From the NCBI GenBank assembly GCA_963742415.1, contig CAVULX010000003.1, positions 704,001 through 768,000 on the forward strand: a DNA stretch of 64,000 nucleotides, read 5' to 3'. Shown here one piece after another: positions 7,400 to 53,609 of this stretch. The translations under genes were made by a program, and so were the position numbers. Origin of the DNA: an uncultured Parachlamydiaceae bacterium. GTDB taxonomy: Bacteria; Chlamydiota; Chlamydiia; Chlamydiales; Parachlamydiaceae. The notes under the pieces are model-generated. The model worked only from the letters and a program-made list of their open reading frames with translations. It did no database searches and was not told where the DNA came from. Each line of letters begins with the position of its first letter. Position 1 is the first letter of the stretch.

Positions 7400-7428
7400 A
7401 ATAAAAAAATAGGATTCATTTAAAATAA

Positions 7429-18258: not shown

Positions 18259-18260
18259 AA

Positions 18261-19537: not shown

Positions 19538-19654
19538 TATTAATTGCTGGTGAACAGATGCGATTTTGCTTTTTTTGACCAAATACGCAACGACATGAGG
19601 CAGTTTCTGCAGGAAAACGATATTGACGCCAACTAGCAAGAAGCTTTTGAAGGA

Positions 19655-20122
19655 TCAACCTTTTATTGGTAGGTAAATTTTGGTTGCTTTCACTTCAGCA
19701 GAGTCATCTAAAAAATTAGTATACTCACAAAAAAGTGGAACTGTAGAAAGGGTGCAGCCAGAAGTAGGAAGCCATTCATGAAAAATTTTATTACAGGTTA
19801 CGCTTAATTCAGAATATGGGCCATTAATAGCAAATACGGCAAAACGTCCTCCTTCGAGCTCTTTTTTCTGGGTGTATTCATCCAGCTCGATTTCATCTTG
19901 TGGTCTTATCTTCGCACATGCATCAAAGCGGCACGCCTTGCTTTCTGTCTCATTAGGATTATCTAAACCCATCCCATAAATATTTTTGATTTCTTGAACT
20001 TTTCTTCCTTGAAGAAAACTAATAAGTTTCTTAAAAGCAATCTCTGGAGTCTCTTTATAATCTCCAGTTTCCCGAACATATAATACTATTTCTGTTTGTC
20101 GTTCTATAATCTCTGGCTGCAT
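19655..20122 (-). CDS. GyrI-like small-molecule-binding (AraC effector-binding) domain protein
   Basis: GMGLDNPNETESKACRFDAC, LEGGRFAVF..GPYSEL and IFHEWLPTSG motifs. Start re-called at ATG 20122 behind AGGAG. Confidence 0.85.
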   Translation of the reverse strand: MQPEIIERQTEIVLYVRETGDYKETPEIAFKKLISFLQGRKVQEIKNIYGMGLDNPNETESKACRFDACAKIRPQDEIELDEYTQKKELEGGRFAVFAINGPYSELSVTCNKIFHEWLPTSGCTLSTVPLFCEYTNFLDDSAEVKATKIYLPIKG

Positions 20123-22097: not shown

Positions 22098-25000
22098 TTA
22101 TAGATCGCAAAAGAAGAATTGTGCCGGAACTTCCCAACAGGGCAGCAGAATAGGTACACACCAATGCACATCTTCTAAGAAGTCTGTCAGGAAGTAGTAA
22201 TCACTAGCCAGATTAAATTGTGAATCATAGACGCCAATGACCGCAAACACATGGGTCCCTTTTAATGGTTTAGGTGGCGGCGGCGGTGGTGGAGGAGGCG
22301 GAGGAGGAGGGGGCGGCGGAGGAGGTGGCGGGGGTGGAGGCGCTCCACAATCCTTGATCTTAACTCCATTGAAAAAAATCACGCATGGGGGATTCGGTGC
22401 ATAGGCATGGACAGTATTATCTATCGACGTACCGTTAAAGTCTGCTAAATCTACACCTCCCGCTATAATTTGTTGGGGTGTATTGACAAGGATCGGGCTG
22501 GAAAGACTTCCTACATTCCCATCGAGAGCGTTAAAGAAGGCAGTATTGGCAGAAACAACGTCGACAGGCCCACCCGCATTGAGGATTGAAGTTTGTGAAG
22601 TAAAGGAAGGGTTGACTAGATTCATCGGTCCGTTCAGTACAACGGACCCTGCGTTTACAGTAACCGTATTGATAGTGCCAACATTTGATAAAGTTCCCAA
22701 AAAGGCAAGACCTGATCCCGTATTAATTGTTATGTTTTCAAAGTTAGTGCCTTGTATCGTGTTGAATGAAAATTCCCCATTATTAGTCTCCACTAACAGG
22801 TCGGATCCACTATTAAGGTGTGTCACTGGGCTCGCAAAGGCGATAGATCCCCCATTAGTAAGAAGAGTCGTAAGTCCAGGATTGACGAAATCGGTGTCGG
22901 CTCCAGATGAATAAGTTTGCGTATGCGCAGCATAGATGGTATTCAAAAGAGAAATTGTATTGCTCGCCGTAAGACTAAGAGTTCCACTCATGATTACATT
23001 TGGAGATCCTATGCCATTTAAAGAAATATCGTGAGCTGAGGCGACTGTAAAATTCTGCAAAGGGATCGATGTCGAAAATGCAGTTGGGACATTAACATCG
23101 CCCATTCCCGCTGTGATAGAAATAGAATGGGTCCCTTCTAAGTCAGTTCCTAAAATGATATTTCCATTGCCTGAATTGAGGGTGAGATCCCCTGTCAGAG
23201 TAATCGGCCCTGAGAAACTAATATCATTTCCGCTAGTAGACAGATTACCGCCGATATTTGTAGTGCCAAGCCCCGTTTGAGTGAAAGGTCCGCTGAGTGC
23301 AAGCGTCAGATTGGGAAGGATAGTTAAGGAAGCCGAGTTCGTAATCGCGAATTTACCGCCGCCCGATGTTGTCACGTTGTCGTTGAGGGAAAATGAGGCA
23401 CCGCTGAGGGTGATGCCGGAAGCCCCTGTGGTGTTTAGAGCTCCATGGAAAGTTACGAGACCGGAAACACTTTCGATGTCGATCACGGAGGCGTTGATGG
23501 CATTGGATGTGAAAGCAGTGCATTCAAGGACTTGGAAAGTAGCAAGCGGGGTTGTTCCTCCCACATCACCTGTCAGAAGGATCGATCCTGAACCGGCATC
23601 GAGTACAAGATTATTCAATCCGTTGACCGTATTTGAAAGGATAATAGAGCTGCCTAAACCGTTGAGGTCAAAGAGAGAAGATCCAGTTAAAATGATAGGC
23701 CCGGTAAATAAAATTTGATTGCCTTGCACTTGAATAGTTGTATCAAGAGAAGTAGCCCCTTGGCCATTCTGACTAAAGTTTCCTGCTAAATTAATGGGAG
23801 CAGAGCTTAGAAGAGACAATGCGCCTGAGTTGTTTATCGAAAGAGAGCCGATACCTGTAGTTGTGACTAGGGCATCGAAGGTAAAGTCTGTGCCTGTGAG
23901 GTTTATGCCGCTTGGAAGAGTTGTCGTTAACGCTCCGTTGAAGGTTGTCATTCCATCGCCCGAATTTTGGATGATGAACCCAGCTGAGATAGCTTGAGTC
24001 GAAACATTGTTTGCTGTCGTAATAGTCAGTGATGATATCGGGGTCGTGCCTCCGATATTTGCCGCAAGGGTTAAATTTCCTGTACCGGCAGTATAAACTA
24101 GATCAAAGGGCCCATCAATTGTGTTAGAGATGAGAATATCACCTCCACCGTCACTATTCAGAGTTGTTGCACCCGTCAGGGTAATCGGATTGGCAAAAGA
24201 GATGTTCGCGTTGTTTGCGTGAATTGTGCCCGCAAGGTTGACTGTGCCGCCCGTTCCACTTTCTGTGAAAGGGCCTGCGATAAGAGTCGAGGTTCCTGCA
24301 TTTAACGATAATAATCCAGTATGAGTGATTGCACAGGGACCGCTATTTGTGGAAACAAGAGAACCTGTAAGGGCAAAGTTGGTACCGTTCATGTTGATGC
24401 CGGAAGAACCATTCGTATCGATATTCCCTAAAATCGTTGTGGTTCCGGAACCCACGTTCTGTGTGATAGAGGCTGCGGTAATATCAGAAGTTGCGATGTT
24501 GCTTGCTTGGGAAAAAGTGATAGCGCCAAGACGAGATGAGCCTCCAACCATGCCTTGAATACTAATAGAACCTGAGCCTGCATTGAATGTAATGTTTCCG
24601 GGTCCATCGAGAGTGCTTTCAAGGGTGATTGGGCTGGCAGCTGAAGTAAGTGATGCTGTTCCAGAAGCACTGACAGGCCCCGAAAGACTAATCGAGCTTG
24701 ATGAATTAAGCGAGCTGCTAAGAATAGAAGCTCCGGCTCCGTTCTGAGTAAATGCGCCGGAGGAGCTACAAGCATTGGAAAGGGTGAAAAGGCCCGAATT
24801 GGAGATCGCTATAGGGCCTGAAGCTATCGTCGTTACAGGTCCAGTAAATTCGAAATTGTTTCCCGCCAATGAAATGCCGCTTAAGGTACTGCTGTTGACC
24901 ATTCCGGCCAAAATCGTTGTACCTGATCCTCCGACTTGGGTGATTGAAGCCGCATTGATTGCAGCTAAAGTTGCATTATTCGTTTGTGTGATGGTCAAAG

Positions 25001-28000
25001 CATTTAAAGGAGCAAGAGATCCAATCGAAGCTGCAGTGGTAATATTGCCTGTACCGCTATTTAATGTGAGGTTTTGGGTGCCATCGACTAAACCATTGAA
25101 GGTGATATTTCCTGCACCGGATCCGCTATTCAATGTAGTTGCAGCTGCAAGAGTGATAGGGCCTGTGAACCCAATGGCTGCATTGCTTGTCAGCGCACTT
25201 CCCCCGATAGACACAGGGCCTATGCCTGTCTGATTAAACGGCCCTGCCGATTGAATTACTCCTGGAGCAATGGAAGTGAAAGTTCCGGTGTTGGCCACAG
25301 TAATGCCGCCAGTACCAGCCGCCGTCCATGCAGCATCTCGAATTATATCAGTTCCTGTAAGATTGATACCTAAAGAGCCGTTGGTCGTAATTGCACCGTT
25401 AAAAGTCGACGTATTAGAGCCGCTAATTTGGGTGACCGAAGAAGCGGTAATTGCTTGGGCCATGACATTTGCAGCTGAATTTATGGTGATATCTCCTAAA
25501 GGAGTCGTGCTTCCGAGAGGTGAACTCAGAATAATATCGCCAGTTCCGGCAGTGAAGTTAAGAGAGGAGCCTCCATTAACCGTCCCGGATAAAATGATAT
25601 CTCCGCTTCCGGCTCCTGTATCGAATCCTCCCCCGGCAAGGAGAGTAATGGGGCTTGTGAAGGAGATGTTGTGGTCATTGGTGGTGATCGTTCCGGCGAA
25701 AAAGACAGGACCTGTTCCATTTTGCGTATAGCTGCCGTCAATGGAAGTTGTGTTGATGGAAGTACCAGTAATGAACCCCGAATTGGTCACAGTAAAATTG
25801 CCTCCGCCCGTCGTGATTAAAGAGCCGCTTCGAATAAAGTTTACCCCTATCAGAGTAATCCCTGCAGAACCGCTTGAACTGAGATTTCCAACAATCTGCA
25901 TGGTTCCTGTGGCTGTTGCATTCAGGGAGTTGCAAGCAAAGTTCTGGATCGAAATATTTCCTGCGCTAGCCACTGTCGTTGAACCGAGCGGCGTAATTCC
26001 CCCCGCATTCGCTAAGAGAGTGATATTCCCGTTACCTGCTCTTAACGTCCAATTGCCCGCTCCATTTAAGGTGTTAGAAAAGGTGATCGCTTGATTGTTA
26101 CTCGAGGTGTCCATTAAACATGTGCCCGATAACACAACGGGACCTGCAAAGGAGATCCCCCCTTGGTTCGGTGTGACAGAACCTGAAAAATTCGTAGAAC
26201 CTGCGCCATTTTGAATAAACGATCCATCTGGGTTTGCAGTCCCGGCAAAAGTAAATAGGCCGCTATTGTGGACGGTAATGGAAGAACCCGTCGTTGTTTG
26301 AATCGAACCGCTATTTTGAACATTTAGGTTCGTTCCTGTGAACTGAAATCCGATATTATTCACAATAGATACAGCACCTGAAATTGTGGTTGTCCCAGAA
26401 CCTGCTGATTGAATTAACCCATTGACAGCCATATTCCCGATAGAAACATTTCTTGCACTCGAGATGGTTAAAAGGTTTGGACGCACCAGAAAATTACTTC
26501 CGACAGATCCCGAGAAGGTAATATCGCCCGTGCCTGCAGCAAGAGTGAGGTTTTGTGTGTCGGGCGAGGAGCCGTTAACGGTACTAGAAAACGTGATATT
26601 TCCTCCGGCACCCGTTGAAATGACAGAATTGGTGTTGAGCACAACAGATGAAGGGAATGTAAGAGGATTATTGATGGTGGCAATATTACCGCCCACATTG
26701 AGTGTCGAAGAGGGAGCTAGCGAAATCGAATTTGCAATTAGAGCGCCTCCTAGTGTTAAATTTGCACCTGACAAAGAAGCTGAGGCAAATTCTCTATCTG
26801 CAGCAAGACCAATGGCCCCCACTTGGATATTGCCGGATCCGCTAGAAAGGACCAGGTTCCGGCCGCTATTTTGGCCGGCTCGGATCGAAAGAGTAGTTAA
26901 AATGCCGCCAGCTGTATTGAGTGTTAAGTCTGTTCCTGTTCCGAGATTGACAGTTCCATTTTGGAAAGAGAGGTCAGCGCCATTTGAAGAGATCGTCGTC
27001 AAAGCGCCGCTATTCATATTAAATTGTGTGGGAGCATTATAAGTTTGAGCACCGGCATTGTAAGTGGTGCCATTGAATTGAATGGCGCCGCTGGCTGTTA
27101 TTAATGTATCTCCGGTGATACCCTGAGAGGCTCCGCCCATATTGGAAAGTGCAATCTGATTTCCAGTGATTGTCAAAGAAGAAAGGGGAGTGGAATTACC
27201 GATCGGTTGTGTGATCGAGACATTCCCCCCACCTGCCGTAATCGTGAAGGCGTGAGCTCCGTCGACAGTATTTGCGATTGATACGCCTCCTGTACCACCG
27301 CTGGAATCCAGGGCCACATCTCCTACTAACGTAAAGGGGCTAATGATCGTAAAGCCGCCGTTCGCAGAGATTACTCCTCCCAGGTTAACTGTACCTGTAC
27401 TACCGGGGAGCTGCTTCCACTGCCCATCAATATTAGATGTATTGCTCTGAGTTCCGGTTATAGCACCTGAATTGAGGAAAACTAGACTTCCTCCGTTTGT
27501 CGTTACCAAAGAACCCTGTCTAAAGAATTTGTTTCCTGTGAGACTAATACCTTCAGGACCATTTGTATCGAATGTACCGATCAATGAGAATTGGTTGGTC
27601 AAAACCTGTTGGGTGAAGGAACTAGCTTTCACAGTGGCAAAATTTGCATCATGAGCGCTAACGATTAAAACATCTCCTAGACGAATATTTGCTCCGATAT
27701 CTCCGGTAACATTAATGTCACCAGCGCCTGCTATCACGGTAAACGGAAATGCCCCATCAACGGTATTGGAAAGGGCTATATTTCCAGATCCAGCGCCGCT
27801 GTTCAAGGCTGCAGCTGCAGTGAGCGTAATAGGCCCTGTAAAAGAGAGATCTTGATTTGCTGTTTCAACCGTTCCGGCTAAAGATACAGCGCCGCTTCCA
27901 GTTTGACTAAAGGCACCCGTTGAAGAGAGAGTTTGACCTGAGAGTGTAAGGGTTCCTGTGTTGGCAATCGAAAGTGGGCCTGCCGATGTGGCGCTCCCAA

Positions 28001-31000
28001 TAAGAGTAAAGGCAGTTCCTGTCAGGTTAATGCCGCTGAGACCATTGGCGGTAAGATTGCCATTGAATGTGCTAAGGCTGGAACCCAAGGTTTGCGTAAT
28101 GGAGCCAGCTTTAATGTCTTTAGTAGAAACAGCTCCTGCGCTATTGATGGTGAATGCTGTCAGGCTTGTGCCAACCCCAATATCAGATGAAAAGGTGAGG
28201 TTTCCTGTTCCAAGTGTGCAGGTGAGAGAACCAGGACCGTCGACAGTATTCAAAAACTGGATGGAACTGTTATTGGAAGATGAATCTATTGTCGCTATTC
28301 CTGAAGCAACGACGGAAATAGGCCCCTGGAAAGAAACCGAGTTCCCGGTTGCAAGTGAACCCTGGAGGGATACAGCGCCTGCTCCATTTTGGATAAAAGC
28401 GCCGGCAATATGAAGATTTGCAGATGGACCAAAGGCTAATGTGCCTGAGTTCGTAACATTCATCCCTGCTCCGGTACTCATAGAAGTCGTTGTCACCGAG
28501 CCGTTGACTACAAAACTGATGCCAGTCAAACTGATACCGGCGACACCATTGGTATTGATGTTACCAGCAAAGGTCGTTGAGTCGCTCCCTAATTGAGAGA
28601 TCGCTGCGGCGGTAACATCTCCAGTAGTGACATTTTCAGCAGAGTTGATCGTCAGCGTCCCAATTCGAGTTCCTCCTCCGACGGCGCTGCCGAATGTAAT
28701 GTTTCCTTCACCTGTAGTAAGGTTCAAATCATTTGCACCATCAACAGTGCCTGTGAAACTGATACTTCCTGAGCCACTACCTGTATTCAACGTTGTAGCT
28801 CCCGTCAAGGTGATAGCACCGCCAAAAGAAATATCATCATTCGATGTTGAGATCGATCCGCTTAAAGAGGCTGCTCCACCACTTTGGATAAAGCTTCCAT
28901 CAGCTTGTATCGATGCTCCTTGAGTCCAAGTGCCGGCATTTGCAATGGCAATTGGCCCTTCACTCGAAGTGGTGAGGGAGCCATTTTGCACTATCGTTGT
29001 CCCCGTCAATGAGATGCCGTTGGAACCGGAGGCGTTCATAGGTCCCGAAATGAGAGTCGTGCCAGAACTTTCCTGTTGTTCGATAGAAGCAGCAGAGACA
29101 CCTTGATAGGTAATGTTTGCTGCATTTTGCACGGTAAATGAATTTAAGGAATCTTGGTCGCCCACGTTGTCTAAAAATAAAAGATCTCCTGTTCCCGCAA
29201 TCAAGTTGAGGTTGTGAACTCCATTGATCTCGCCGTTAAACGTGAGGTTACCGGCTCCCGAGCTATTTGATATCACTGTTGTCCCCGCTAAATCCACAGG
29301 GCTAGCAATCGAGATCGCTCCCCCTGTCGTGAGAAGAGTGCCCGAAAGAGCCACGCTGCCGCTGCCGCTTTGGGTAAATGATCCAGAAATCGAGGAGCTT
29401 GGTCCACCTGTAAGGGTCAGTTGGCCGCCATTAGAAATCGAGACCGCTCCCCCCGACGTAGTAACAAGATTTCCGTTGATCGAGAATGTGATGCCTGTAA
29501 GAGAAATGCCCCCTGCAAGGCTCGTATTTAGAGAACCGAGAGCCGTGGTTCCTGAACCTGCTGACTGTGTAATCGTTGCTGCTGTGATGTTTTGAATCGT
29601 CACATTCTGGGCATTATCAATCGTGAAGTCGCCTATTTCAGTAATTCCCCCAATATTTCCAGCTATGAGTAGATCTCCAACTGTGCCTAAATTGAGTTCC
29701 AAAGAGCTTGAGCCATCGATTGTGCTGGAGAAAGTGATATTCGTCGAGTTAGCGGAAGTATCAAGAACTGCCAGATTGGCGAGGGTTGCCGCCCCAGCAA
29801 AAGAGATATTCCCATTTGCTGTGATGCTACCACCCAGCGTTACCGCCCCATTGCCCGACTGACTGAATGCACCATCCACGGAAAGTGAAGCTGCACCTCC
29901 TAATGCTAATGTTCCAGTATTGGTGATTGCAATAGGACCTGATGCAGTTGTTACCATGCTATTGTTCACTGCAAACGCATTGCCTGTAAGTTTAATTCCG
30001 CTCACAGAATTAACATCAATCGCACCATCAAAGGTCGTCGTGCCAGTTCCGGCAACTTGTGTCAAGGAAGCAGCACTAACAGCCCCTGTGGCGACATCAC
30101 CCGCACTTTCTATGGTGATATTACCGACCCTTGCCACGCCTCCAATGCTACCTGAGAAAGTAACATCTCCAATTCCGGCGGTTAAATCGAGATCGTAAGG
30201 TTGATCCAGTGTATTCAAAAATGTTATATCTGCTCCTGTTAAGCTCACAGTGTTGATCGCTAAGTCACTACTCAAATCAACAGCTCCAGCAAAAGAAACA
30301 ACATCATCGGTCGTTTGAATATTTCCGCCAATCGACACACTTCCTGCGCCAGTTTGCTGGAAGGCTCCATCAAGATTGAAGACTGCCCCGTTTCCCGTAA
30401 AAGTGCCGGAATTATTGAAAATGGCTGGAGCTTCATTTGTGGTGAGTGTAGATCCCGCGACCGAAATATTGTTTGTCTCGATATTGATTCCTCCCGCAAT
30501 GGCTTCGATTCCAGCAGAGATTGTCGTCGTGCCAGCACCATTCGTTTGTGACAAAGAACCCACAGTCATTTCCTGGCTGATGATTACATCTTGACCCGTC
30601 CCGATAGAAAGTGAAGTCAGAGGAACAGAATTACCAACCAACCCATTAAATGTTAATGAGTTTCCAGTCCCTGGATTGATTGTTACATTGCGGCTTCCTA
30701 CTCCGTCTCCATTGACAATGTTGTTGAATATAAAGCTTCCTCCTGAAAAGACAATATTATCTGCGGTGATCACAACAGGAGAGTTGTAAGTTAGGGGGCC
30801 AAGCTGATCTGTGCTTATAAAAGTAATCGTTGGAGACTGAAAGACAGGGGCTGTTGTTGAAAAAATGGGATCTGGGTGGTTGATGGTGCCGCCGGTGATC
30901 GTCACACTATTAACATCATTCCCCGAGGTTCCGATCTGAGCCACCGTCACAGTTCCCAAAATAGCGTCGAGAGTGATATTCTGCCCGGGCCCTGTAAGAT

Positions 31001-40000: not shown

Positions 40001-43000
40001 GCTAATCCCGCTCGTGCCAGTGTAACTAATTGCACCCGTCGTATTCACTGTAGAACCTTGTGTCACAGTAGAGCCGCTAGCAGTGATCGATGTAAGTGGT
40101 GTTGTCCCCCCAACCGCACCCGCCAATGTGACACTGCTTCCCGTAAGATTTAAAGCTTGAGCCCCATTCACACTATTCGAAAAGACGATAGGAGCTCCGG
40201 TTGTTGAAACGGTATTGATGATAAAATCACTAGTCAAAGAAACAGGACCTGCAAAAGAAACTAAGGCATCGGTCGTAAGGATGTTCCCTCCGATAAGCGA
40301 AACGGCGCCCGAACCTGTTTGTTGGAAAGGTCCGCTTAAAGTATAGCCTGTTCCAGTCGAAGTAAAAGTGCCTGAATTATTGATAACAAGAGCTCCGCCC
40401 CCTCCCGTCGAAATATTACCTGCCATGCTGACACTACCATCAGTGATGTTGATACCTCCAGATCCTGTAGTCGAAAATCCACCAGCAACGGTTGTTGTTC
40501 CAGACCCGCCGGTTTGTGTGAAAGAGCCTAAATTCACCCCGCTATTAAACGTCACATTTTGCGCCGTTCCAATAGTCAGAGAGGTCAACGCAGCTGAATT
40601 GCCAACCAATCCAATAAAGCTAGCTGAATTGCCAGCTCCCGGATTTATCGTAAGATTGCGGCTGTTGCTTGTTGCATCTGAGTTAAGAGTGCTATCAAAG
40701 GTAAATGACCCCCCGGAAAAAACGAGGTTATCGGCACCGATGATGACCGGAGAACCATAGACAATAGGTCCGATTTGATTGGTGGTGATTGTGAGGATCG
40801 TGGGGGAATTGAATACCGGTGGTGTGTTAGAAAAAATGGGATCTGGGTGGTTGATTACATTTCCAGTTGCTGTAATGCTCTGCACGTTATTACCTAAAGT
40901 ACCGATCTGGGCCAAATTTACGGTTCCAGTAGATGCATTTAGAGTGATGTTCCGATTCACACCAGTCAAATTGGTCAGTGTGATATTCCCCCCGTTGCTA
41001 TTTACAGTAAAGTCTGTGCCTGAACTTAGAGAAATAGTTCCTGTGACAAAAGTAATTGGAAGGCCTCCTGACGTCATCGTCATAGGAGCGCCAGCAGTGA
41101 AATTAAAATTTGTACCTGCTGTATATGTTTGGTTTCCGTCTGAAATCACTGTCCCTGTAAAGTTGATAGCTCCAGTCGAGGTAACGGATGTGATCCCAGT
41201 GGAAAAGGCAGCTCCCGTGCCCCGGTTGGCTAAATTGATCGTAGCGCCGCTGGCGGTAAAATTATTAAATGGAACGACCCCTCCCATCGTCCCTGCCAAA
41301 GTCACTGTTCCAGTTCCGGAGGTGAGTGTGAGGTTTCTTCCCGAAACATCTCCGTCAATCGTTCCGGTAATCAAAATATTCCCCGCACCAGACCCAGTTG
41401 AGAGAGCCGCATTATTCGTATTTGTCTGAGTGGCGTTGCCATTTAACGTAATATTTTTGCCGACGGTCGTAATATTGCCGCCAAGAGAGATCGGACCAGT
41501 AAGAGAGACTGCATTGGTAGTAGAAATCGAGCCTAGTTGAACAATAGAAATTCCTGATGCTGTCAATGAACTCAAGGGGGTCGTACCGCCAATTGCTCCG
41601 GCCAGAGTTACTATTCCGCTGCCTGTCAGAGTTAATGCATGGCCTCCATCAATACTGTTAGAGAAGGTGAGATTCGAACCCGTCTCCACCACATCACCTG
41701 TTAGAACAACAGGTCCAGTCAATCCAATCGTACTGCTTGCCGTCGTTAGATTGCCGCCCAAATTGATCGAGGTGGGTGCATTATAACTTATTGCGGCGGT
41801 TGTGGTAACTGCTGCACTCTGCGTCATCGATGCACCTGTTGCACTCAATGATGTAAGCGGTGTCGTTCCCCCAACAATTCCTGACAATGTTATAGCGCCG
41901 TTTGTGCCGCCGATTAAGGTTAGCGCTTGAGCGCCGTTAACAGTGGATGAGAAATTAATGTTTGCTCCTGTAGTTGTTGCACCTCCATTAGTGGCATCAA
42001 CAGTCAGATTCGTTCCCAAAGTGACAGGTCCGGTCATCCCGATGGCACCACCACTCGTTGTCAAATTGCCCCCTAAGTTAATGGCACCGGTATAATTAAT
42101 TGCCCCCGAGGTTTGAACAGCTGTATTTTGCGCAATCGTAGCGCCAGAAGCGGTCAATGAATTGAGAGGCGTTGTGCCTCCCACCGCCCCCGACAAGGTC
42201 ACAATGCCGCTGCCATTAAGTATCAACGCTTGTGCTCCGTTCACCGTATTTGAAAGAGAGATGTTCGATCCTGTTGCAACAACACCCCCTATTAACGAAA
42301 CTGGTCCCGTCAAGCCAATCGCACTGCCGCTGGTGGTTAAATTTCCCCCCAAGTTGATTGCCGTCGGAGCTGTATAGCTTATGGCTCCTGACGTAGCTGC
42401 ACTCGAGTTCTGTGTAATGATTGCGCCAGTTGTGGTCAGAGTGGTTAAAGGAGTTCCGCTTCCAATAGCTCCAAACATGGTCACTGTCCCTGCCGTGCCC
42501 CCGTTCAAAATTAACGCTTGCCCATTATCAATCGTACCGGAGAAGGTGATGTTTGATCCGGAAGAGAATCCGCCACCATTTGTTGTATCTACTGTCACCC
42601 CCGCAGTAAGAGACACAGGACCGGTCATTCCAATCGTTCCGCCGCTCGTCGTCACGTTACCGCCTAACCCTACCGCGCCTGTATAACTGATAGCTCCTGT
42701 TGTTTGGGACGGTAGATGTCTGTGTTATGGCAGATCCGCTGGCCGTGAAGCTTGCAAGCGGACTTACCCCCCCGATCGCTCCCGTAAATGTGATTATGCC
42801 ACCGGTACCCCCATTCAAGATAAGTCCTTGAGCGCCATCGATCGTATTCGAAAAAGAAATGCTCGCTCCTCCAGGTGCCGAGTGTGTTGTATCTGCCGTT
42901 ATCCCGTTTGTCAACAGCACAGGGCCGGTCATTCCGATCGTTCCGCCACTCGTCGTCAAATTACCATTCAAACTAATCGAAGTTCCGTTATAGCTAATTG

Positions 43001-46000
43001 CTCCAGTTGTTGCTGCTGTCGATCCCTGAGTAATCGCAGTGCCTGCCACATTTAAGGTGGATAGAGGAGTTGCTCCACCAACAGCTCCTGTCAATGTCAC
43101 GGCACCAGTGCCATTCAACGTTAGAGCTTGCGCACCATCAACTGTATTTGAAAACGAAAGGGTCGAACCGGTTGCCGCCACAGGGCCTGTCAAAAACACG
43201 GGACCTATCAGCGATATAGGACTGCTTGTTGTAGTAAGAGCACCACCAAGATTGATAATGTTTGGCGCTGTGTATCCTATTGCCCCTGTCGTCACGACGC
43301 TCGACCCCTGCGCAATCGTGAAACCTGTGGCCGTAAGGGAGCTCAAGGGCAATACCCCACCCACAGTTCCATTGAGAGTCACAGTCCCACTTGTTCCTCC
43401 TATTAAATTCAGCGAATTGGAGCCGCTGCCATTGATCACGCCTGAAAATGAGATGGAGGCACCAGCAGGTATGGTGTTGCTATTAGTTGTATCGAAAACT
43501 GTATTTGTATTTAGCGTGATAGGGCCTGTCATTCCAATGGAGCCGCCATTAGTCGTCAAGTTTCCATTCAAATTGATAGTCGTACCGTTATAACTTATGG
43601 CTCCTATTGCATTAGCTGTTGATCCTTGAGTAATTGTCGTGCCGTTGACGGTCAGTGAGCTCAAAGGGGTCGACGATCCAACTGCCCCTGTCATCGTGAC
43701 TGTACCACTGCCTGCTAAAGTCAGAGCATTACCACCATCAATCGTACTGGAAAATAAAAGGCTCGAACCACTTGCTATCACACTCCCTGTCACAGCGACA
43801 GGGCCTGTCATTCCAATACTCCCTCCCGCGGTCGTTGTCAATGAGCCACCTAAACTAATCCCTGTTCCGGTGTAATTGATCGCACCACTCGTTGTTGCAG
43901 CTGAACTCTGTGTTATCGTAGCACCGGTTGCAGTTAGTGAGCTTAAAGGTGAAATGCCGCCTATATTTCCCGTCAGTGTTACGGTTCCACCAGACCCTCC
44001 CATCAATATCAGAGATTGAGGATTATCAATTGTGTTCGAGAAGATAATATTTGCCCCTGAGGGTATTCCACCGCTATTTGTCGTATCGACTGTCACAGCC
44101 GATCCCAAAGTAACAGGGCCAGTCATTCCGACGGCCGCACCAGTTGTCGTTAAGTTGCCGGCTAAACTAATTCCGGTAGATCCCGCGTAGTTGATAGCCC
44201 CTGTTGTGGCTACAGCTGCACCTTGGGTGATCGAAAGTCCACTCGCAGTCAAAGAGGTCAGCGGCACGGCTCCTCCAACAACGCCCGATAGTGTCACGGC
44301 TCCACCGGAACCACCGGTTATAGTGAGTGTTTGAGGCCCATTGATAGTGCCCAAAAAATTGATATTTGCACCGGCAGCTGAAGCGCCTCCATTTGTACTA
44401 TCCATCGTCAAATTGGTACCTAAAGCCGCTGGACCAGTCATCCCAATTGCGCCGCCGTTAGTCGTCACATTGCCATTCAGATTAATTGCTGTGCCGTTAT
44501 AGTTAATCGCGCCTGTGGATTTGGCCGTCGAACTTTGTGTAATCGTAGTTCCACTGACAGTGAGCGAAGTTAGCGCCGTCGTCCCTCCAATTGCCCCTGT
44601 CATTGTCACCGTACCGCTGCCTGTCAAAGCTAACGGATGGGCCCCATTAACCGTGCTGGAAAGTAATAAATTAGAACCTGCCTGTACAACAGCCCCAGTC
44701 AAAGTGATGGGACCGGTCATTGATATTGGACTAGCAGTCGTCGTCTGATTGCCTGCAAGTTTAATTGAAGAGCCGGTATAACTAATTGCACCGGTAGTTG
44801 TCACAGAAGCACTTTGTGTGATCGTCGTGTTATTTGTAACTAACAGTGAGCTTAGAGGCGTCGTGCCTCCTACAACCCCTGTCAATGTTACTGTTCCCCC
44901 AGTACCTCCCTTGAGAACTAAAGGAGAACTACCATCGACGCTGCTTGAGAAAGTGATATTCGCACCCGATGCAGAAATACCGCCATTTGTCGTATCTGCT
45001 GTTACAGCGCCAGAGAGTATGACAGGGCCTGTCATCCCCATCGTTGCGCCGCTCGTCGTCAGGTTGTTCCCCAGATTGATTGTTGTACCATTATAACTAA
45101 TAGCTCCCGAGGTAATAACTGGGGAGCTTTGCGTGATCGCCCCGCCAGTTACAGTAAGGGAAGTGACTGGTGTTAAACTACCTATTGCCCCCGACATTGT
45201 CACAGGGCCACTTGTTCCACCTGTCAATGTCAGTGTTTTGCCACCATCGATCGTACTCGAAAAAGAGATTCCAGCACCGGCAGGTGTAGCTCCTCCGTTG
45301 GTCGCATCAGCTGTTATGTTCGCACCTAGCGTGATAGGGCCGGTCATACCAATGGTGCCGCCACTCGTTGTCAGTTTTCCGTTTAAACTAATGGCCGTTC
45401 CATTATAACTAATTGCACCGGTTGTCTTCACAGTTGAACTTTGTGTGATAGAAGTACCACTCACATTCAATGATGACAAAGCAGTCGTTGCACCAACAGC
45501 CCCTGACAAAGACACTGCTCCACTGCCATTTAGAGTAAGTGCTTGTGCACCGTTCACTGTACTCGAAAACGACAGAGTCGATCCAGTTGCCACTACAGGA
45601 GCTGTCAAAGATACAGCGCCCGACATCGATATCGGATTCGCTGTCGTTGTAAGGGCCCCACCCAAATTAATCAGAGTTTTCGGGGTATAATTGATCCCCC
45701 CTGTCGCAACTGCGGAGGAGCTTTGCGTAATCGTCGCTCCCGTTACAGTGAGAGAACTCAATGGGGTTATGCCGCCAACGGCACCTGACATTGTCACGTT
45801 GCCGCCCGTACCGCCTGTTAGTGTCAAAGCCTGTCCACCATCTAGTGTACTCGAAAAACCTATCGAAGCACCTGCGACAGAACCTCCAGCATTGGTGGAG
45901 TCCACGACCACTCCACCAGAAAGAGCTGTTGGCCCTGTAATTGTAATGGCAGCGCCGCTCGTCGTTATATTTCCACCGAGGTTGATCGCTGTCGATCCGG

Positions 46001-49000
46001 TATAACTCAAAGTCCCCTTTATTTTAGTCGCTGAACTCTGCGTAATTGTGGCCGCGGTGACCCCCAATGAATTCAAAAGTGTCGTTCCCCCAACAATACC
46101 AGTAAATGTGGTCATTCCAGATCCACCTGCTATGGTGAGGGCTTGTGCACCATTCAATGTACTGCCAAAGCCAATATTCCCATTATTCGATGTGATGATG
46201 CTTCCCCCTGTTAAACTAACAGGGCTCGGAAAATTCAATGGGTTCGCCCCAGTAACTGTAATGTTATTACCTATCTGAATCAGGCCAGCACTTCCAAAGG
46301 AAAGATTGGTAAGGGGATTGCTTCCGCCCGCAGCTCCTGCAAAGGAAACACTCCCGCCAGTCCCAGCGTTTACTGCTAAGGCTGTTCCTCCAGCGGTACT
46401 ATTAAGAGTGCTCGAAAAAGCGATGTTCGCCCCGGCGGGAGCTCCGTTTGTTACATCCATGGTTAGAGAATTAGTAACCGCAGTAGGCCCGGTCATGGTG
46501 ACCGAATTACCGCTGGTGGTTATGTTCCCATTCAAATTGATCGCTGACGTTGCAGTATAGCTCAAAGTCCCCGTTGTTTGCGCAGACGAGTTTTGCGTAA
46601 TCGTCGCGGCGGTAACACTCAATTGACTCAAAGGGGTCGCTCCACCAACAGCACCAGTAAATGTCGTCGTTCCAGTACCTCCCGCTATAGTCAATGCCTG
46701 AGCTCCATCAAGGGTACTGCTAAAACCAATATTTGCATTGGTAGAGGTAATCGTGCTTGCTCCGGTTAAGCTTACTGGGCTCGGAAAAGTAAGCGGATTG
46801 GCCCCTGAAACCTTGACATTGCTTCCAATCTGTATGAGTGAAGGGCTAGTAAACGCTAGATTGGTCAGTGCAGTAGTAGTGCCAATAGCACCCGAAAGAG
46901 TCACTGTTCCGCTGCCAGCCAATGTCAATGCTTGCGCACCGTTTACCGTACTTGAAAAAGAGATGTTCGAACCGGTCGCGATCACACCGCCACTCAGTGT
47001 AGCGGGGCCCGTCATCGTTATAGGGTTGGCTGATGTCGTTAAATTACTACCCAAATTGATCGCCGTACCTGTATAGCTGATCGCACCAGTAGTTGTCACG
47101 GATGCACTTTGTGTAACCGTGGCAGCATTTGACACTGTCAATGCACTTAAAGGTGTTGCCCCTCCCACAATCCCCGACATTGCGACAGTTCCACCGGTAC
47201 CGCCTTTTAAAACTAATGCCGATCCACCGTTGATTGTATTTGAGAAGGTGATATTTGCACCTGCCGGGGCAGAACTTGTCGTGTCTGCCGTAACAGCACC
47301 TGTCAGGGTAACGGGGCCTGTCATCCCAATTGCCCCGCTGGTGGTCGTCAAATTGCCACCTAAGCTGAGAGCCGACCCATTATAACTGATGGCTCCCGTT
47401 GTTGTGGCAGAAAGAGTTTGTGTGATTGTACTGCCTGTGGCCGTAAGCGAAGTCAAAGGGGTCGCACCACCAATCACACCAGATAACGAGACGGCACCAC
47501 TCGTACCGCCTGTTAATGTCAACGTTTTGCCCCCATTAATGCTGCTTGAAAAAGAGATCCCAGCTCCGGCCGGCACGGTTCCTCCATTAGTCGCATCTGC
47601 TGCTACATTAGCGGACAAGGTCACGGGGCCTACCATTCCAATGGTTCCACCGCTAGTTGTCACATTGCCGCCTAAGCTAATTCCACTGGACCCATTATAG
47701 CTGATCGCCCCAGTCGCTTTTGCAGTCGAGCTCTGCGTCATACTAGAACCGGTAACCGATAACGAGCTCAGCGCGGATGTCTGTCCAACTGCTCCGCCAA
47801 TCGACACTGCCCCGGTTCCTGCCGTCAAAGTCAAAGACTGCGCTCCATTAATGGTGCTGGTACAGGAAATATTACCCCCGCCGCCTGCACTTGTATTCAT
47901 CGTCACAGGACCATTTAAAGTTACTGGACCCGTGATCGAAATCGCACCATTGGCAGTAGTCGTAATATTGTTGCTAATGGCGATGGGCTGCGTGCTGCTA
48001 TAAGTGACGTTTCCGCTAGAAGTGGTCACCGTACTACTTTGAATAATCGTTGCAGTGCCCGTTACAGTGGCGCTCAAGGAAGTGAGCGGTGTCATTGATC
48101 CTAAAGCACCTCCGAGAGAAATACTAGTCCCGCTCGTCAAGGTCAATGCCTGACTCCCATCGACCGTACTAGTGCTCCCCACAAAGGAAATAATTCCCCC
48201 GGTGCTTGCTGTACTCATCGTGATGGGTCCACCCAAAGTCACTGGACCTGTGATCGAAATCGCACCACTGGCAGCAGTCGTCGTGATATTGTTGTTGATG
48301 GCGATAGGTGCCGTACTGCTATATGTGACATTTCCGGTAGTTTTCACGGTACTACTTTGAGTAATCGCACCCGATCCCGATACAGTAGCGTTCAAAGATG
48401 TGAGCGATGTCGTCCCCCCTACAGCGGCTCCAAGAGAAACGCTTCCCGAGCCAGCTGCAAGGGTCAATGTCTGCCCCCCATTGATTGTACTGTTAAAACC
48501 AATGTTGGCGTTATTCGAGGTGATGGTGGTCGCACCAGTTAAACTTACGGCACTGGGGAAAGTTAAAGGATTGACACCCGTGATAGTAATATTGCTTCCT
48601 ACCTGAATCAAATTCGCACTTGTAAAGGACAGATTAGCAAGAGGAGTTGTCCCACCGATAGCTCCAGTAAAACTGACGGTTCCACCGGTACCTCCTGTTA
48701 AAGATACCGTTCCACCTCCGTTTATTGTACTAGAAAAGGAAATATTAGCCCCAGCAGCGGACCCTCCGCCGTTCGTCGTATCGATAAAGGCGGCACCGGT
48801 CAATGTCGTAGCTCCTATGCCCACAGTTCCACCAGGGGTTATTAAAGATGATGATCCGGCGGAAAAGGTCGTCGCTCCGAAACTCATTAGAGCTGCTGCG
48901 GTTGCTGTCTTTACTGTACCAAGAATTGTTGTCGCTCCGGCTGTATGGGTCACATTATTGGTAAACTGTAGGCTTGCAGAAGTTCCACTATTCAGTGTGA

Positions 49001-51212
49001 CTCCACCCGTATTCAGAAATGTTGTCGTCGGCGTGATGGTGCCCCCATTGCTAAACACTACACCATATGTCTTCGCTGCTGTCGCAAGCGACGTTGCGAT
49101 CGTCACCGCTCCATTAAAAGTAATGTTCCCTGTCGTATTAGTCAGGGTCACTGTAGGAACAGTCGTCGTACCGGTAATGGTGGTCGATCCACTATTTGTG
49201 ACCGTGAATGCATTTGCTGTAAGATTTCCTCCGAACGAAACTGTTCCAGTACCGGAGTTTACCGTAAGTGACTGTGTTGTCGATTGTGATACGTTTCCCC
49301 CGAAAGAAATTGCACCATTATTCGTGCTTGTATTAATCGTACTCGTACCTGTAAGCGTAGTGGGCACGTTATTTGTTACTGTAAACGAATTCGCTGTAAC
49401 ACTTCCGCCAAGGCTAACGCTGCTAGTCCCCGCTGCCGATGAAATTACGAATGCCCCAAGTCTTGTTGTTCCACCGATAGCTCCAGGCAAGGTGACCGCG
49501 CCGGTAGAACCTGCGTTCAAAGTAAGAGCATTGGATCCCGCGGTGCTTCCATTAATCGTACTTGAGAAAGCAATATTTGCCCCTGCAGGAGATCCTCCTG
49601 CGTTGGTTGTGTCCAAGGTGACGTTTGCACCAACGGTTACAGCGCCTGTAAGGGAAAGCGGTTGCCCTTGAGTAGTAATGCCCGCATTGAGCGTAATCGG
49701 TCCGGCATTGGCGGAACCAGCCGTCATCGACAACGACACACCAGCCGGCATCGTAAATGCATTACTCACAGTAATTGAACTACTTGCACCATTGGTTGCA
49801 CAAAGAGCCACGTTACTAGAAGCTGCTTGTAGCGTAGACACAAGAAGATTAACAGTTCCTGTAGTAGCACAGTTGGGAGACGACGCGCTTGCGATGGTAC
49901 CTGCGGTACCAGTACTCGCGATCGTAATCGAGGCTGGATCGAGCAGCCAATCACCATAATTTCCATTTGAAGCCGATGTGTCAACATGACCCGAACCGAC
50001 AACCAGGGTTTCCTTGCCCGATGTTTCGACAAATCCCCCATTCCCTTCGAATTTTCCACCGCGCGCATAAATCTTCCCATCAAAAAGCGTTGTATCATCC
50101 GCCCAAACGATGACTTCTCCCCCATCCCCAGCGGCATATGCATCCGCCCAAACAACAGAAGACTCATCCATCTGCGTCCATTTTGCATTTCGCTGCGACC
50201 CCTTACCCTGATAATCGCCGCCGATCAACACTGTACCGCCACCCTTATCGCCCGACGCATCGATCTCAGCACCCAAAAGCTCAACCCGATCTCCCAGAAT
50301 CTCAACCCTTCCTCCGGTTTGCCCCTCCTCCTTGCTCGAAGCACGGATCTTCCCTCCGACGCAAACCCTATGACCTTCAACCTGTACATTTCTGGCTACA
50401 ATTTCACTCGCGCCTACCAGTCGAATGACACCGTTTGATTCCTCAATGCCAGCTGCAACATCAATTCCATCAGTATTTATAACACTCCGGATTGCCTTAC
50501 GGGCTGCATTTGAAGAAATCTGAACCCCGCCGTTGGCCGCTTCAATCTTTCCGTAATTTTCTATCAATGCGTTCTCTAACTCACCATCAACGCGAAATTG
50601 GATTAAGCCATCCCCCATCACGTCGAGAAATACTTTTTCCGCCGCTCCAACGAACACTTTTCCCACGCGGGCATAGATACTGCCTCGGTTCTCTACAGTC
50701 GGAGCAAAGAGAGCGACAAACCCATCCGCCTGGATCCTTCCTTCATTGACGATCGAACCTGTCACCCCTTTTTCCAGGTAAAACTCAAATGAGTCATTGA
50801 GGAAGTTCTCATCGCGAATGGAGAGTGAAGTCGCTAAAAATGACCCTGCATTCACTGTTGAATTCGGTCCAAAATACACCCCTTCAGGATTCACGAGAAA
50901 AATGCGTCCGTTTCCTTGCAGGTGGCCCAAGATTTCGCTACAATTGCCACCCTTTACTCGATTCAATACACAAGAACTAGTGGATGGTTGAACAAATTCA
51001 ACAGTCTCGCCATTTCCAATGTTAAATTGCTGATATTCAATGATTGTCTTATCGGAAGTAGTGATAGAAAGCTTGTTTGCATCAGAACAAAATGCTGCCT
51101 CTCCCGCTTTTACCTTGCCTTTAGAAGGAAGTGCCAAAAGAGAACTGGAAACTGAAAGACTTATAACGATTAAAATCGTTTTTAATCTACGGCCGCAAAA
51201 TGACATTGTCAT
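22098..51212 (-). CDS. Giant two-partner secretion TpsA exoprotein (filamentous haemagglutinin/HMW1-like), ~9,700 aa when four 1-nt indels are repaired
   Basis: Signal peptide, TPS domain (FNIG..ETVEFVQP..VLNRV..SEILGHLQGNGRIFLVNPEG), GGFVETSG and WLLDP, then G/T/S/N-rich beta-helix repeats. Frames join at ~42707, ~34522, ~34080 and ~32511; the first and last ORFs share one frame. Confidence 0.88.
22272..22340 (-). repeat. Poly-proline tract (23 CCN codons) near TpsA C-terminus
   Basis: Run of NGG triplets on the + strand with mixed synonymous codons. Confidence 0.95.
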
Positions 51213-51358
51213 TATTATTAGACACTTACATTAAAAGATAAACCTTGGCAAAAAAAGGAACAACTACTCTATGTATATATAATTAATTTTTTAAATTTTA
51301 AATAAGAAAAGGCGCTCTGGCAGGAAAATGAATTTAACGTCTATCTCCAATAGGACGA

Positions 51359-51647
51359 TCTATCGCCGCTACCGCGGCTTTATATTTATTTGGCGATTAC
51401 CCCACGTTCCAGCCTGCGCTTCGCGCATGGCTTTCACGCGGGGCTCCCCACTCACCTCCCTTCCGGGAGGTTTTGACATTTACCGTAGAGTTATAAAAAT
51501 ATTCTTATTTGAATTGGATAAAGAACCTGCTGGAACCTCCCGGAAGGGAGGTGAGTGGGGAGCCCCGCGTGAAAGCCATGCGCGAAGCGCAGGCTGGAAC
51601 GTGGGGTAATCGCCAAATAAATACAAAGCCGCGGCAGCGGCGATAGA
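51359..51647. repeat. Long inverted repeat: two 114-bp arms (112/114 identical) around a 61-bp AT-rich spacer
   Basis: 51359-51472 is the reverse complement of 51534-51647, with mismatches only at 51371 and 51382. Confidence 0.95.
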
Positions 51648-51704
51648 AAGATCAATTTGGAAATGTCCAAACTCGGGCCCTAATTCAAACATCAGGTTAG
51701 AGAT

Positions 51705-53393: not shown

Positions 53394-53609
53394 CTTTAAA
53401 AAATGCAAATTCAATCCCCTCACCGATACCTTCTAATAGTGAATAATCTTGTCTTTGACAAAATTGAAATGAAACCTTCAGAGTTCGAAACAAGCATTCT
53501 TTATTAAATTTAAAATATTTGCTAGCAGAAAAGCATTTGAATGGAATATTGGTAAAAAGGCAAACGTAAAGACACTATATCGAACGTAAGTAAAACGTAG
53601 ATAAAAAAA

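Follow-up and report, generated by a model that had tools for sequence, protein, structure and literature searches.

The window analysed here, a stretch of 64,000 nucleotides from a member of the Parachlamydiaceae, carries on its minus strand two neighbouring genes, tpsB and tpsA. The second gene is spread over five open frames, which overlap at four junctions (J1 to J4):

22098..51212, minus strand: whole tpsA, 29,115 nt, that is 9,704 codons plus stop if the four frame changes are read through
42657-51212, minus strand: tpsA piece 1, stop-to-stop open frame with an ATG start, 2,851 aa
34517-42724, minus strand: tpsA piece 2, stop-to-stop open frame
34051-34527, minus strand: tpsA piece 3, stop-to-stop open frame
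32459-34144, minus strand: tpsA piece 4, stop-to-stop open frame
22098-32525, minus strand: tpsA piece 5, stop-to-stop open frame
42657-42724, minus strand: J1, +1 frame change, without a homopolymer of at least 4
34517-34527, minus strand: J2, +1 frame change, an 11-nt window without homopolymer
34051-34144, minus strand: J3, -1 frame change, six-G run on the minus strand
32459-32525, minus strand: J4, -1 frame change, five-G run on the minus strand
51213..51704, minus strand: tpsB-tpsA gap, 492 nt, with a pair of short, oppositely oriented GC hairpin motifs
51705-53423, minus strand: tpsB, 572 aa, with Pfam matches to POTRA_2 (E 1.3e-18) and to the ShlB/FhaC barrel (E 1.3e-20)

The frame path across the five pieces is 0>1>2>1>0 (+1, +1, -1, -1; net zero), and the overlaps between successive frames (68, 11, 94 and 67 nt) each bound one break. 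Our frame analysis agrees with the first-pass annotation, which had joined five frames through four frame changes into a gene of this same length. No in-frame stop is present inside the five pieces. A change of one base at each break is the most economical reading of the sequence and fits the collinearity with the closest relative (genome G330), in whose alignment merely 1-4 residues are unaligned at J2-J4; J1 lies inside a zone of ~100-aa repeats, where the alignment register is ambiguous. Pieces 2-5 start in the middle of repeats without plausible start codons, and a signal-peptide-like segment and the TPS domain are confined to piece 1. In GC3, tpsA (0.40-0.43) does not differ from the mean of the genome (0.417). 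Promoter-like and terminator-like matches in the 492-nt gap are not above those of shuffled sequence. SnoaL-like and GyrI-like genes are located downstream of tpsA, and NqrA and a long GreA are also encoded within the window. The genome measures 2.69 Mb (42% GC, 4 contigs) at a completeness of 84%, the listed genomes of the same family being 93-99% complete, and it holds four TLC nucleotide transporters. These transporters, the NqrA and long GreA of the window and the naming of relatives as Chlamydiales or Simkania support a chlamydial origin.

tpsB is situated directly upstream of tpsA in the same orientation and gives the only ShlB match in the whole genome. Its product is 69% identical to the TpsB of G330 and 51-54% identical to those of three further genomes (G259, G319 and G202). 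The N-terminal region of TpsA contains the following features:

51129..51212, minus strand: putative signal-peptide-like segment of ~28 aa, basic residues followed by a hydrophobic run, read from the translation
50397..51089, minus strand: TPS domain PF05860, aa 42-272, E 2.3e-29, above the curated cut-off
49119..51137, minus strand: EtpA/HMW1-like region, aa 26-698, by PDB sequence search
49935-49949, minus strand: WLLDP motif, aa 422 of the first open frame

The PF05860 match is likewise the only one in the genome. The first-pass annotation had named both a TPS domain and a co-oriented upstream TpsB and had advised HMM searches, which now bear it out; together with the frame path, the two proteins support its proposal of a type Vb (TpsB plus TpsA) two-partner secretion locus with a joined product of ~9,700 aa. 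A PDB sequence search with the N-terminus returned EtpA (8vba, E 5.5e-60; 8cpk, E 2.5e-56), HMW1 (2odl, E 3.7e-37 over aa 36-412) and HxuA (4i84, E 1.3e-26). The WLLDP motif is aligned with 'WLLDS' of EtpA, and 'NPEG' with its NPNG. Sequence similarity thus places the N-terminal 700 aa in an EtpA/HMW1-like subclass, in line with the HMW1-like WLLDP motif noted earlier.

Most of the remaining chain is made up of two kinds of repeats:

40118..49925, minus strand: zone of ~100-aa-spaced repeats (approximate, aa ~430-3,700), spacing from a repeat HMM, about 30 units
23091..40117, minus strand: zone of 164-aa repeats (approximate, aa ~3,700-9,380), about 30 near-full copies
24573..26030, minus strand: three modelled 164-aa units, predicted right-handed beta-helix, AF2 pLDDT 97.1, pTM 0.90

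Paralogous HSPs were found in each 300-aa chunk of TpsA from aa 301 onward, and the repeat paralogues have a median protein identity of 36% with a maximum of 74%. Neither unit matches a Pfam family. Like adhesins of this class, the passenger has few charged residues and much Thr, Gly, Ser, Ala and Asn. Our AF2 models cover one 486-aa repeat segment and the last 250 aa of TpsA. VIA-align of the repeat model returned Vag8 (Z 19.8), HMW1 (18.5), EtpA (18.4, and 16.5 for a second EtpA), HxuA (16.5), pertactin (16.4) and FHA (16.1), and a Foldseek search of it against the PDB gave no match at E<=0.001. The ~100-aa zone is assumed to be beta-helical as well, from partial HMM similarity and from the alignment with EtpA. 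Because the modelled 164-aa segment is predicted to be a beta-helix, a fibre length of ~160-220 nm is a fair inference, which accords with the roughly 200 nm proposed earlier for an all-beta-helix chain.

The end of the protein has a different organization:

22101..22850, minus strand: C-terminal module, last 250 aa, comprising the beta-helix end, a Cys pair, polyproline and an aromatic tail, AF2 pLDDT 83.9
22347..22394, minus strand: NPPC-x11-DC motif, two conserved cysteines at the final predicted beta-helix turn
22272..22340, minus strand: run of 23 prolines, homologues being Pro-rich at the equivalent position
22101..22271, minus strand: 57-aa tail, predicted to be disordered when alone, with a conserved FNLASDYYF at 22191-22217

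In an alignment of homologues of this module C168 is invariant and NPPC nearly so. The module is present in 191 representative proteins (E<=1e-3) and, across the phylum, in 52 of 401 genomes (E<=1e-5). No Pfam family corresponds to it, and a PDB sequence search with the last 499 aa gave no match. By its sequence, it is a conserved, unannotated and family-specific unit.

All five pieces of tpsA are homologous to intact giants in other genomes, and the similarity extends as far as each junction. The TpsA of G330 (9,032 aa) is uninterrupted, 52-70% identical and collinear across J2-J4, and that of G202 (9,966 aa, uninterrupted) has the same pattern of repeat spacing. Two uninterrupted proteins belong to the same family as the window's genome, namely those of G259 (10,804 aa) and G319 (6,258 aa); the same-family copies are 35-43% identical to the window's tpsA, and the closest relative, G330, belongs to a different family. 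Two families other than the window's contain orthologues whose repeats are laid out in the same way. A TpsB gene lies directly upstream in G259, G319 and G202, and in G330 a TpsB-like frame beside the giant is cut at the locus edge. Flanking genes are not common to the window's locus and those of the relatives. Relatives named 'hypothetical protein' at NCBI include 6,213 aa in a Chlamydiales bacterium and 5,948 aa in a Simkania sp. Of 400 genomes sampled across the phylum, 179 have TPS domains, and five open frames of at least 9,000 aa are among the 150 matches listed, one of them (10,804 aa) from the same family, so that the rarity implied by the first-pass annotation is not supported. In two well-sampled families of the phylum, with 23 and 29 genomes, no copy of the fibre was found. 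The annotation had named many similar, already described loci as a finding that would refute it, and half of this holds: judged by sequence, giant TpsA is not unique and similar loci are many, yet our literature search found no published description of a giant chlamydial tpsA gene.

The frame breaks were judged against a background rate, for which 753 open frames of G319 (at least 200 aa, from 1.2 Mb) were aligned to the genome; the test is home-made, and some of its events may stem from BLAST sum statistics. Over the 668 kb of conserved coding sequence that aligned, it counted 42 frame changes. The window's contig accounts for 29 in 421 kb, or ~1 per 15 kb (24 when both flanking HSPs are at least 60% identical); split genes of this assembly are therefore not to be read as pseudogenes. 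The long greA of the window is split in this way too. From this rate 1.7-2.0 breaks are expected in 29.1 kb and 4 are observed in tpsA (Poisson P 0.09-0.14). The reverse test on G319 as control genome gave 12 frame changes in 669 kb, just 4 of them with both flanks at least 60% identical; G319 is thus not break-free. By inspection, no clean mid-gene nonsense codon was seen genome-wide, the breaks seen being frame changes. Statistically, the four tpsA breaks are most likely indel errors of the assembly, and therefore the organism probably makes a ~9,700-aa protein. The earlier advice to polish the assembly is apt, because frame breaks are frequent genome-wide. Overall, we consider it likely that the locus holds one giant tpsA gene of the EtpA/HMW1 class, broken by consensus indels.

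The frame changes might instead be real, leaving either a very recent pseudogene or a shortened, still secreted fibre limited to the first ~2,850 aa, which would consist of the TPS domain and ~100-aa repeats. The four breaks exceed the ~2 expected, J1 and J2 are without a homopolymer of at least 4 and so are not classic homopolymer errors, and TPS domains occur in only 2 of 45 other genomes of the family, suggesting that loss is common there. However, there are zero nonsense codons across 9,700 codons or, clean and mid-gene, on inspection of the genome, the shifts add up to zero, conserved genes such as the long greA are broken at comparable density, and the downstream pieces are as well conserved as the upstream one (pieces after J1 are 62-70% identical to G330 vs 52% before it). 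We therefore regard real breaks as unlikely. A genome in genuine decay would likewise show many frame breaks. A functional role of the breaks, through slippage at short G runs (phase variation) or programmed ribosomal frameshifting as an on/off switch of the fibre, would fit the coding-strand G6 run in J3 and G5 run in J4. Surface adhesins are often phase-variable, which speaks for such a role. But runs of 5-6 G are short for slippage, J1 and J2 have no run of at least 4, intact orthologues are uninterrupted at the corresponding places, and four independent switches would almost never be 'on' together, which makes this role very improbable. Hardly any weight can be given to five separate genes or to a misassembled (collapsed or chimeric) array. 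Assemblers can be misled by repeats, in which the passenger abounds, but these repeats are old and too divergent for collapse, and unit order and spacing agree unit by unit with G202 and G330; separate genes are opposed by pieces 2-5 beginning inside repeats and by the putative signal peptide and TPS domain occurring in the first piece only.

Taking tpsA as one gene with assembly indels, we infer from the established two-partner secretion pathway that TpsA is secreted as a long fibre, a likely adhesin that may be held by its tail. Sec would carry the TpsA precursor into the periplasm, where the TPS domain would dock onto the POTRA domains of TpsB. The chain would then thread through the TpsB barrel and fold outside into a right-handed beta-helix, in which some 30 units of ~100 aa and another 30 or so of 164 aa would build the fibre. 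By analogy, the fibre probably serves to attach the bacterium to surfaces or to host cells. The C-terminal module may retain the fibre at the cell, with tail and proline rod in or under the pore, or through a disulfide link to the envelope. This guess parallels the C-terminal tethering of HMW1 and the proline-rich prodomain of FhaB.

More tentatively, and with the odds against it, the locus may represent a phylum-wide, as yet unnamed family of TPS fibres of environmental chlamydiae, whose shared end module is a new anchor and whose ~200-nm tether captures hosts. Members would measure between ~900 and ~10,800 aa and would all end in Cys pair, proline rod and aromatic tail; the module would fix the tether either inside the TpsB pore or to the chlamydial envelope, which is disulfide-linked, and the extracellular stage would catch protist or animal host cells from afar. 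Were this family reading true, attachment would depend in large part on the fibre. Studies of chlamydial adhesins have dealt mainly with Pmp autotransporters and OmpA/MOMP-like proteins. Host attachment of environmental chlamydiae is poorly understood, and the TpsA family provides a testable candidate for long-range capture. Many genomes of the phylum encode type Vb systems, and one subfamily, which has the C-terminal module, reaches 9,000-10,800 aa, well past textbook TpsA; such a fibre would be a sizeable fraction of the diameter of the infectious particle. The family offers a natural length series for studying how TpsB transports 10,000 residues without ATP. The role of the new module in anchoring or maturation is open to probing.

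By sequence, the known system that the N-terminal 700 aa match best is EtpA/EtpB of enterotoxigenic E. coli (etpBAC; PDB 8vba, 8vbb, 8cpk). Both share an NPNG-type turn, a WLLD motif, a (here predicted) beta-helical repeat passenger and the order tpsB then tpsA. However, the solved EtpA chain has 1,564 aa compared with ~9,700 aa here, the units of ~100 and 164 aa are unlike those of EtpA, and EtpA has no match to the end module. No EtpC/HMW1C-type glycosyltransferase is present among the 25 flanking open frames scanned, and PF18071 and PF18254 have no match in the genome, which is 84% complete (no control genome gave a match either). HMW1/HMW1B of Haemophilus influenzae (PDB 2odl) has a homologous secretion domain and matches the repeat model (Z as above). 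HMW1 is a surface-tethered TpsA adhesin, held by its C-terminus; it is much smaller and requires HMW1C, and the conserved Cys pair here precedes the proline run. The cysteines of the extreme tail are not conserved among relatives, which leaves a terminal disulfide loop of the HMW1 type without support. HxuA/HxuB of H. influenzae also has a homologous secretion domain, but HxuA is a haem-hemopexin binding protein with a solved chain of 884 aa.

FhaB/FHA with FhaC of Bordetella pertussis (PDB 1rwr) resembles the locus in two-partner secretion of a long beta-helical fibre, in its secretion domain, which is the FHA match of the repeat model, and in a proline-rich stretch near the C-terminus, which in FhaB is a prodomain. 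The FhaB precursor has ~3,600 aa, and TpsA is ~2.7x as long. An FhaB-type haemagglutinin was rejected: the five pieces have no Fil_haemagg Pfam match at E<=0.01, and FhaB is absent from the PDB sequence matches. So was a CdiA-like or polymorphic TPS toxin: neither a VENN motif nor a Pfam toxin or PT-VENN domain was found, the protein ends in the module conserved among its relatives and not in a variable toxin, and the downstream genes are those given above. Within the phylum, a 'huxA/huxB-like' TPS operon of Rhabdochlamydia helvetica, noted in one sentence and a supplementary table (PMC6490308), is the sole mention of a chlamydial TPS operon that we found in print, and these passages mention neither a giant size nor a repeat architecture nor a C-terminal module. 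The other chlamydial giants share the TPS domain and the C-terminal module, and between these both types of repeat follow in the same order; their open frames are uninterrupted, whereas the window's copy has four frame changes.

The giant TpsA gene (tpsA) lies on the reverse strand in five stop-to-stop frames, downstream of a co-oriented TpsB gene:

51705–53423 (-): TpsB ORF, 572 aa, with Pfam matches to POTRA_2 (E 1.3e-18) and ShlB (E 1.3e-20)
42657–51212 (-): tpsA piece 1, stop-to-stop frame with an ATG start, 2,851 aa
34517–42724 (-): tpsA piece 2, stop-to-stop frame
34051–34527 (-): tpsA piece 3, stop-to-stop frame
32459–34144 (-): tpsA piece 4, stop-to-stop frame
22098–32525 (-): tpsA piece 5, stop-to-stop frame

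A three-frame map of the 29,115 nt reveals that the open frame shifts 0>1>2>1>0. There are two +1 shifts and two -1 shifts, and the length is a multiple of three, giving 9,704 codons plus stop. Neighbouring frames share 68, 11, 94 and 67 nt, which sets the limits of the four breaks (junctions J1 to J4). The TPS secretion domain is present in piece 1 (aa 42–272, E 2.3e-29, Pfam) and the WLLDP motif is located at aa 422. Frame map, Pfam domains and motif position therefore bear out the first-pass description of the locus (frames, length, TPS domain, TpsB and WLLDP) in every point that could be checked. Whole-genome profile search gives one match in this genome for each of the TPS and ShlB families. 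Scanning for promoters and terminators near the operon gave no more hits than shuffled sequence did. Two near-identical GC-rich hairpin motifs lie in opposite orientation in the 492 nt that separate tpsB from tpsA (51365–51378, plus strand, and 51628–51641, minus strand), each of the form GCCGC-N4-GCGGC followed by a T-rich tail; the scan overall was not above shuffles. The assembly is 2.69 Mb long in four contigs, with 42% GC and a completeness of 84.45%; it encodes four TLC nucleotide transporters, and NqrA and a long GreA are encoded within the window. These genes, and relatives of the protein from a Chlamydiales bacterium and a Simkania sp., indicate a chlamydial genome.

All five pieces of tpsA are homologous to uninterrupted giant TpsA proteins in four other chlamydial genomes.

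Uninterrupted relatives of TpsA (one further entry, L023, overlaps G202 in coordinates, is apparently the same locus and is counted once)
G259: 10,804 aa; own family; TpsB gene directly upstream
G319: 6,258 aa; own family; TpsB gene directly upstream
G202: 9,966 aa; other family; TpsB gene directly upstream
G330: 9,032 aa; another other family; a TpsB-like frame, truncated by the edge of the locus

Pieces 1 to 5 are 52, 69, 70, 62 and 64% identical to the G330 protein, and this alignment continues over J2, J3 and J4 with only 1–4 residues unaligned. J1 falls among repeats, which leaves the register ambiguous; homology follows the old frame up to 42681 and the new frame from 42712. Unit spacings obtained with a repeat HMM succeed one another alike in tpsA, G202 and G330, including irregular steps of ~390, ~230 and ~100 aa. 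The length itself is therefore conserved, and with the spacings in a common order the array cannot be a collapsed or chimeric assembly of repeats.

Whether the four breaks are errors or real was approached indirectly, through a home-made estimate of the break rate in the assembly. In this estimate, 1.2 Mb of the G319 genome, a single contig, supplied 753 ORFs (>=200 aa), which were searched by tblastn against our genome; two collinear HSPs of one query with a frame change within 150 nt were taken as one event.

Frame changes per aligned conserved coding DNA
C1: 5 in 24 kb
C2: 5 in 90 kb
C3 (contig of the window): 29 in 421 kb
C4: 3 in 132 kb
All contigs: about 42 in 668 kb

Both HSPs are at least 60% identical in 24 of the C3 events. 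The reverse test, with ORFs of our genome on the G319 stretch, gave 12 frame changes in 669 kb; once the 60% filter is applied, 4 are left. Contig C1 (71 kb) has the highest density of frame changes. The broken genes are well conserved, with flanks 60–100% identical, and some of them show four breaks. Among them is the long greA (3909–6084, plus strand), which is present as a 587-aa ORF lacking a Pfam match and an overlapping 209-aa ORF with GreA_N and GreA_C; its 753-aa G319 orthologue spans both, at 71–72% identity on each side of a frame change near 5632–5642. Because an essential gene is also broken, the view that frame breaks in this assembly are errors gains support. The completeness of 84% despite only four contigs, against 93–99% for the listed genomes of the same family, fits this view as well. 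Best HSPs contain 114 in-frame stops, 69 of them where the HSP is at least 60% identical. Inspected by eye with no formal filter, these 69 fell within non-coding flanks of stop-to-stop queries, within shadow ORFs on the antisense strand or within scrambled stretches beside frame changes, and no clean mid-gene nonsense codon was seen among them. There are no stops within the five tpsA pieces, and the pieces after J1 are more conserved relative to G330 than the piece before it.

Two observations, besides the indirectness of the test, count against errors in the consensus. At the C3 rate, 1.7–2.0 breaks are expected in 29.1 kb whereas four are observed (Poisson P 0.09–0.14), and no homopolymer of four or more is present at J1 and J2, although J3 has a G6 and J4 a G5. 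On balance, the comparison with related genomes makes it quite likely that the four tpsA breaks are consensus indel errors. With about 42 frame changes in 668 kb of conserved coding DNA, split genes and the low completeness of this genome are to be read accordingly.

The first-pass annotation knew of no characterised equivalent in the phylum. The gene is not unique, as the distribution of the TPS domain makes plain; it remains true that no such locus was found described in print.

TPS domain and C-terminal module in an even sample of the phylum (400 genomes scored for TPS, one further genome unscored; module counted at E<=1e-5)
f1 (own family, other genomes): TPS 2/45; module 3/45 (one weak)
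f3: TPS 0/23; module 0/23
f4: TPS 0/29; module 0/30
f6: TPS 51/69; module 11/69
f8: TPS 23/35; module 2/35
f9: TPS 63/90; module 30/90
All sampled: TPS 179/400; module 52/401

The TPS match is over the curated cut-off in 177 of the 179 genomes. Among the 150 TPS matches listed (there are 314 further ones), at least 14 lie in frames of 5,000 aa or more and at least five in frames of 9,000 aa or more. Two further giants, L094/L095 in G365 and L092/L093 in G194, have open frames of 10,734 and 10,234 aa; their TPS start is related (35–44% identity over the first 500–700 aa) and their repeat units are different, and at its C-terminal end the G365 giant likewise has a polyproline/SP-rich stretch, its tail being different. 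Judged from these sequences, giant size appears to have evolved on more than one occasion among these bacteria.

Among the copies compared, the closest to both TpsB (69%) and TpsA (62–70% after J1) is that of G330, which belongs to another family, and the copies of the same family are 51–52% (TpsB) and 35–43% (TpsA) identical. No flanking genes are common to our locus and G319, G259, G330 or G202. This closeness to G330 without synteny suggests that the tpsB-tpsA operon moves between chlamydial lineages within the phylum, and a transfer between chlamydial families is possible from the same pattern. The raised GC of the region (0.47–0.51 versus 0.42) was rejected as a signal of recent horizontal transfer because GC3 of tpsA equals the genome mean and the excess is located at codon position 2. 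Just downstream of tpsA, GC dips to 0.354 (18001–20000) around an AAA_14/DUF4143 ATPase gene (18261–19472) and a GyrI-like gene, and this segment may be an insertion. Further along, a 722-aa YjbH-family protein is encoded at 12657–14825 (minus strand, E 9e-164), with neighbours at 9911–11748 that have no Pfam matches; this family has been tied elsewhere to exopolysaccharide export. On the other side of the operon, an 885-aa RHS-repeat/YD-shell protein (58285–60942, plus strand) is followed by Imm53 (61248–61670, plus strand, E 1.3e-32), which together look like a polymorphic toxin-immunity pair. Imm53 and RHS toxins are recorded in chlamydiae in a 2012 survey (PMC3482391).

The last 250 aa of TpsA form a module: out of 1.84 billion, 191 representative proteins match it at E<=1e-3, and 93 of them at <=1e-10. 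It invariably sits at the C-terminus of the matched protein. Its carriers reach 7,137 aa; one of them, of 901 aa, is a complete TpsA that has its own TPS domain. Alignment reveals four conserved elements, namely FNAL-G-VGS-SPI, NPPC-x11-DC with an invariant second Cys, a proline-rich stretch (23 consecutive prolines in tpsA) and FNLASDYYF-x-F-D-x-Y. No Pfam family was found in these 250 aa or in four long relatives, and when the last 499 aa were compared with PDB sequences, chance-level rows alone came back (E>=0.068). In the AF2 model the module is beta-helix up to the Cys pair at high confidence, and the last 55 residues have pLDDT <50. Three cysteines in the extreme tail had raised the idea of an HMW1-like terminal disulfide loop, which was dropped because they vary among relatives. 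Predicting TpsB together with the final 85 aa (proline run and tail) as a complex gave a score of 0.00 in two runs and carries no weight either way. By analogy, one might guess at a role of the module in anchoring or maturation.

Two NCBI relatives of TpsA (from a Chlamydiales bacterium and a Simkania sp.) are annotated as 'hypothetical protein'. The only printed mention of a chlamydial TPS operon that was found is one sentence on a huxA/huxB-like pair in Rhabdochlamydia helvetica (PMC6490308). No paper on a giant chlamydial TpsA was found in full-text searches of the literature outside subscription journals and supplements; all of six adhesin and TPS terms are absent from a pangenome paper on the phylum (PMC8242063), as is 'chlamyd' from PMC4104836.

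Between the TPS domain and the end module, TpsA is repetitive. Every 300-aa chunk from aa 301 onwards has paralogous matches (median identity 36%, maximum 74%), with a unit spacing of ~100 aa until ~aa 3,700 and of 164 aa from there to ~aa 9,380, where 30 near-full copies are present. No Pfam family covers these units. When three consecutive 164-aa units were modelled from 60 aligned triplets, paralogous as well as orthologous, they gave an all-beta structure (pLDDT 97.1, pTM 0.90) with ~18 short strands, or about six or more turns, per unit. The rise per turn of a beta-helix is usually 0.48 nm. Extrapolated from this one modelled segment, the repeat region would very roughly span 160–220 nm, and the fibre of ~200 nm first proposed thus appears reasonable. 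Read through with X at the breaks, TpsA contains mainly Thr (16%), Gly (16%), Ser (12%), Ala (10%) and Asn (9%); charged residues make up ~4%, and there are 276 N-x-S/T sites and 27 Cys. Neither the locus nor the genome (84% complete, searched with no positive control) revealed a glycosyltransferase of the HMW1C/EtpC type, and Pfam and a motif check found no CdiA-type toxin end in TpsA.

Foldseek with the repeat model returned nothing from the PDB at E<=0.001, the top row being HMW1 (2odl, E 0.14). VIA-align over all representatives ranks right-handed beta-helices top.

VIA-align Z scores to the repeat model
Vag8: 19.8
HMW1: 18.5
EtpA: 18.4
HxuA: 16.5
pertactin: 16.4
FHA: 16.1

EtpA leads the PDB sequence matches to the first 700 aa (8vba, E 5.5e-60 for aa 26–698; 8cpk, 2.5e-56), followed by HMW1 (2odl, 3.7e-37) and HxuA (4i84, 1.3e-26), and FhaB is absent from the matches. 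In the alignment with EtpA, the NPNG turn corresponds to NPEG in TpsA, and WLLDS to WLLDP. The mechanism of such a system is textbook and the gene has counterparts, but its scale, its broad distribution among chlamydiae, the novel module at its end and the absence of a description deserve the attention of specialists. The gene belongs to a widespread, undescribed chlamydial subfamily with repeat units and a C-terminal module of its own, and its product is probably a real and intact two-partner secretion fibre of ~9,700 aa of the EtpA/HMW1 class.
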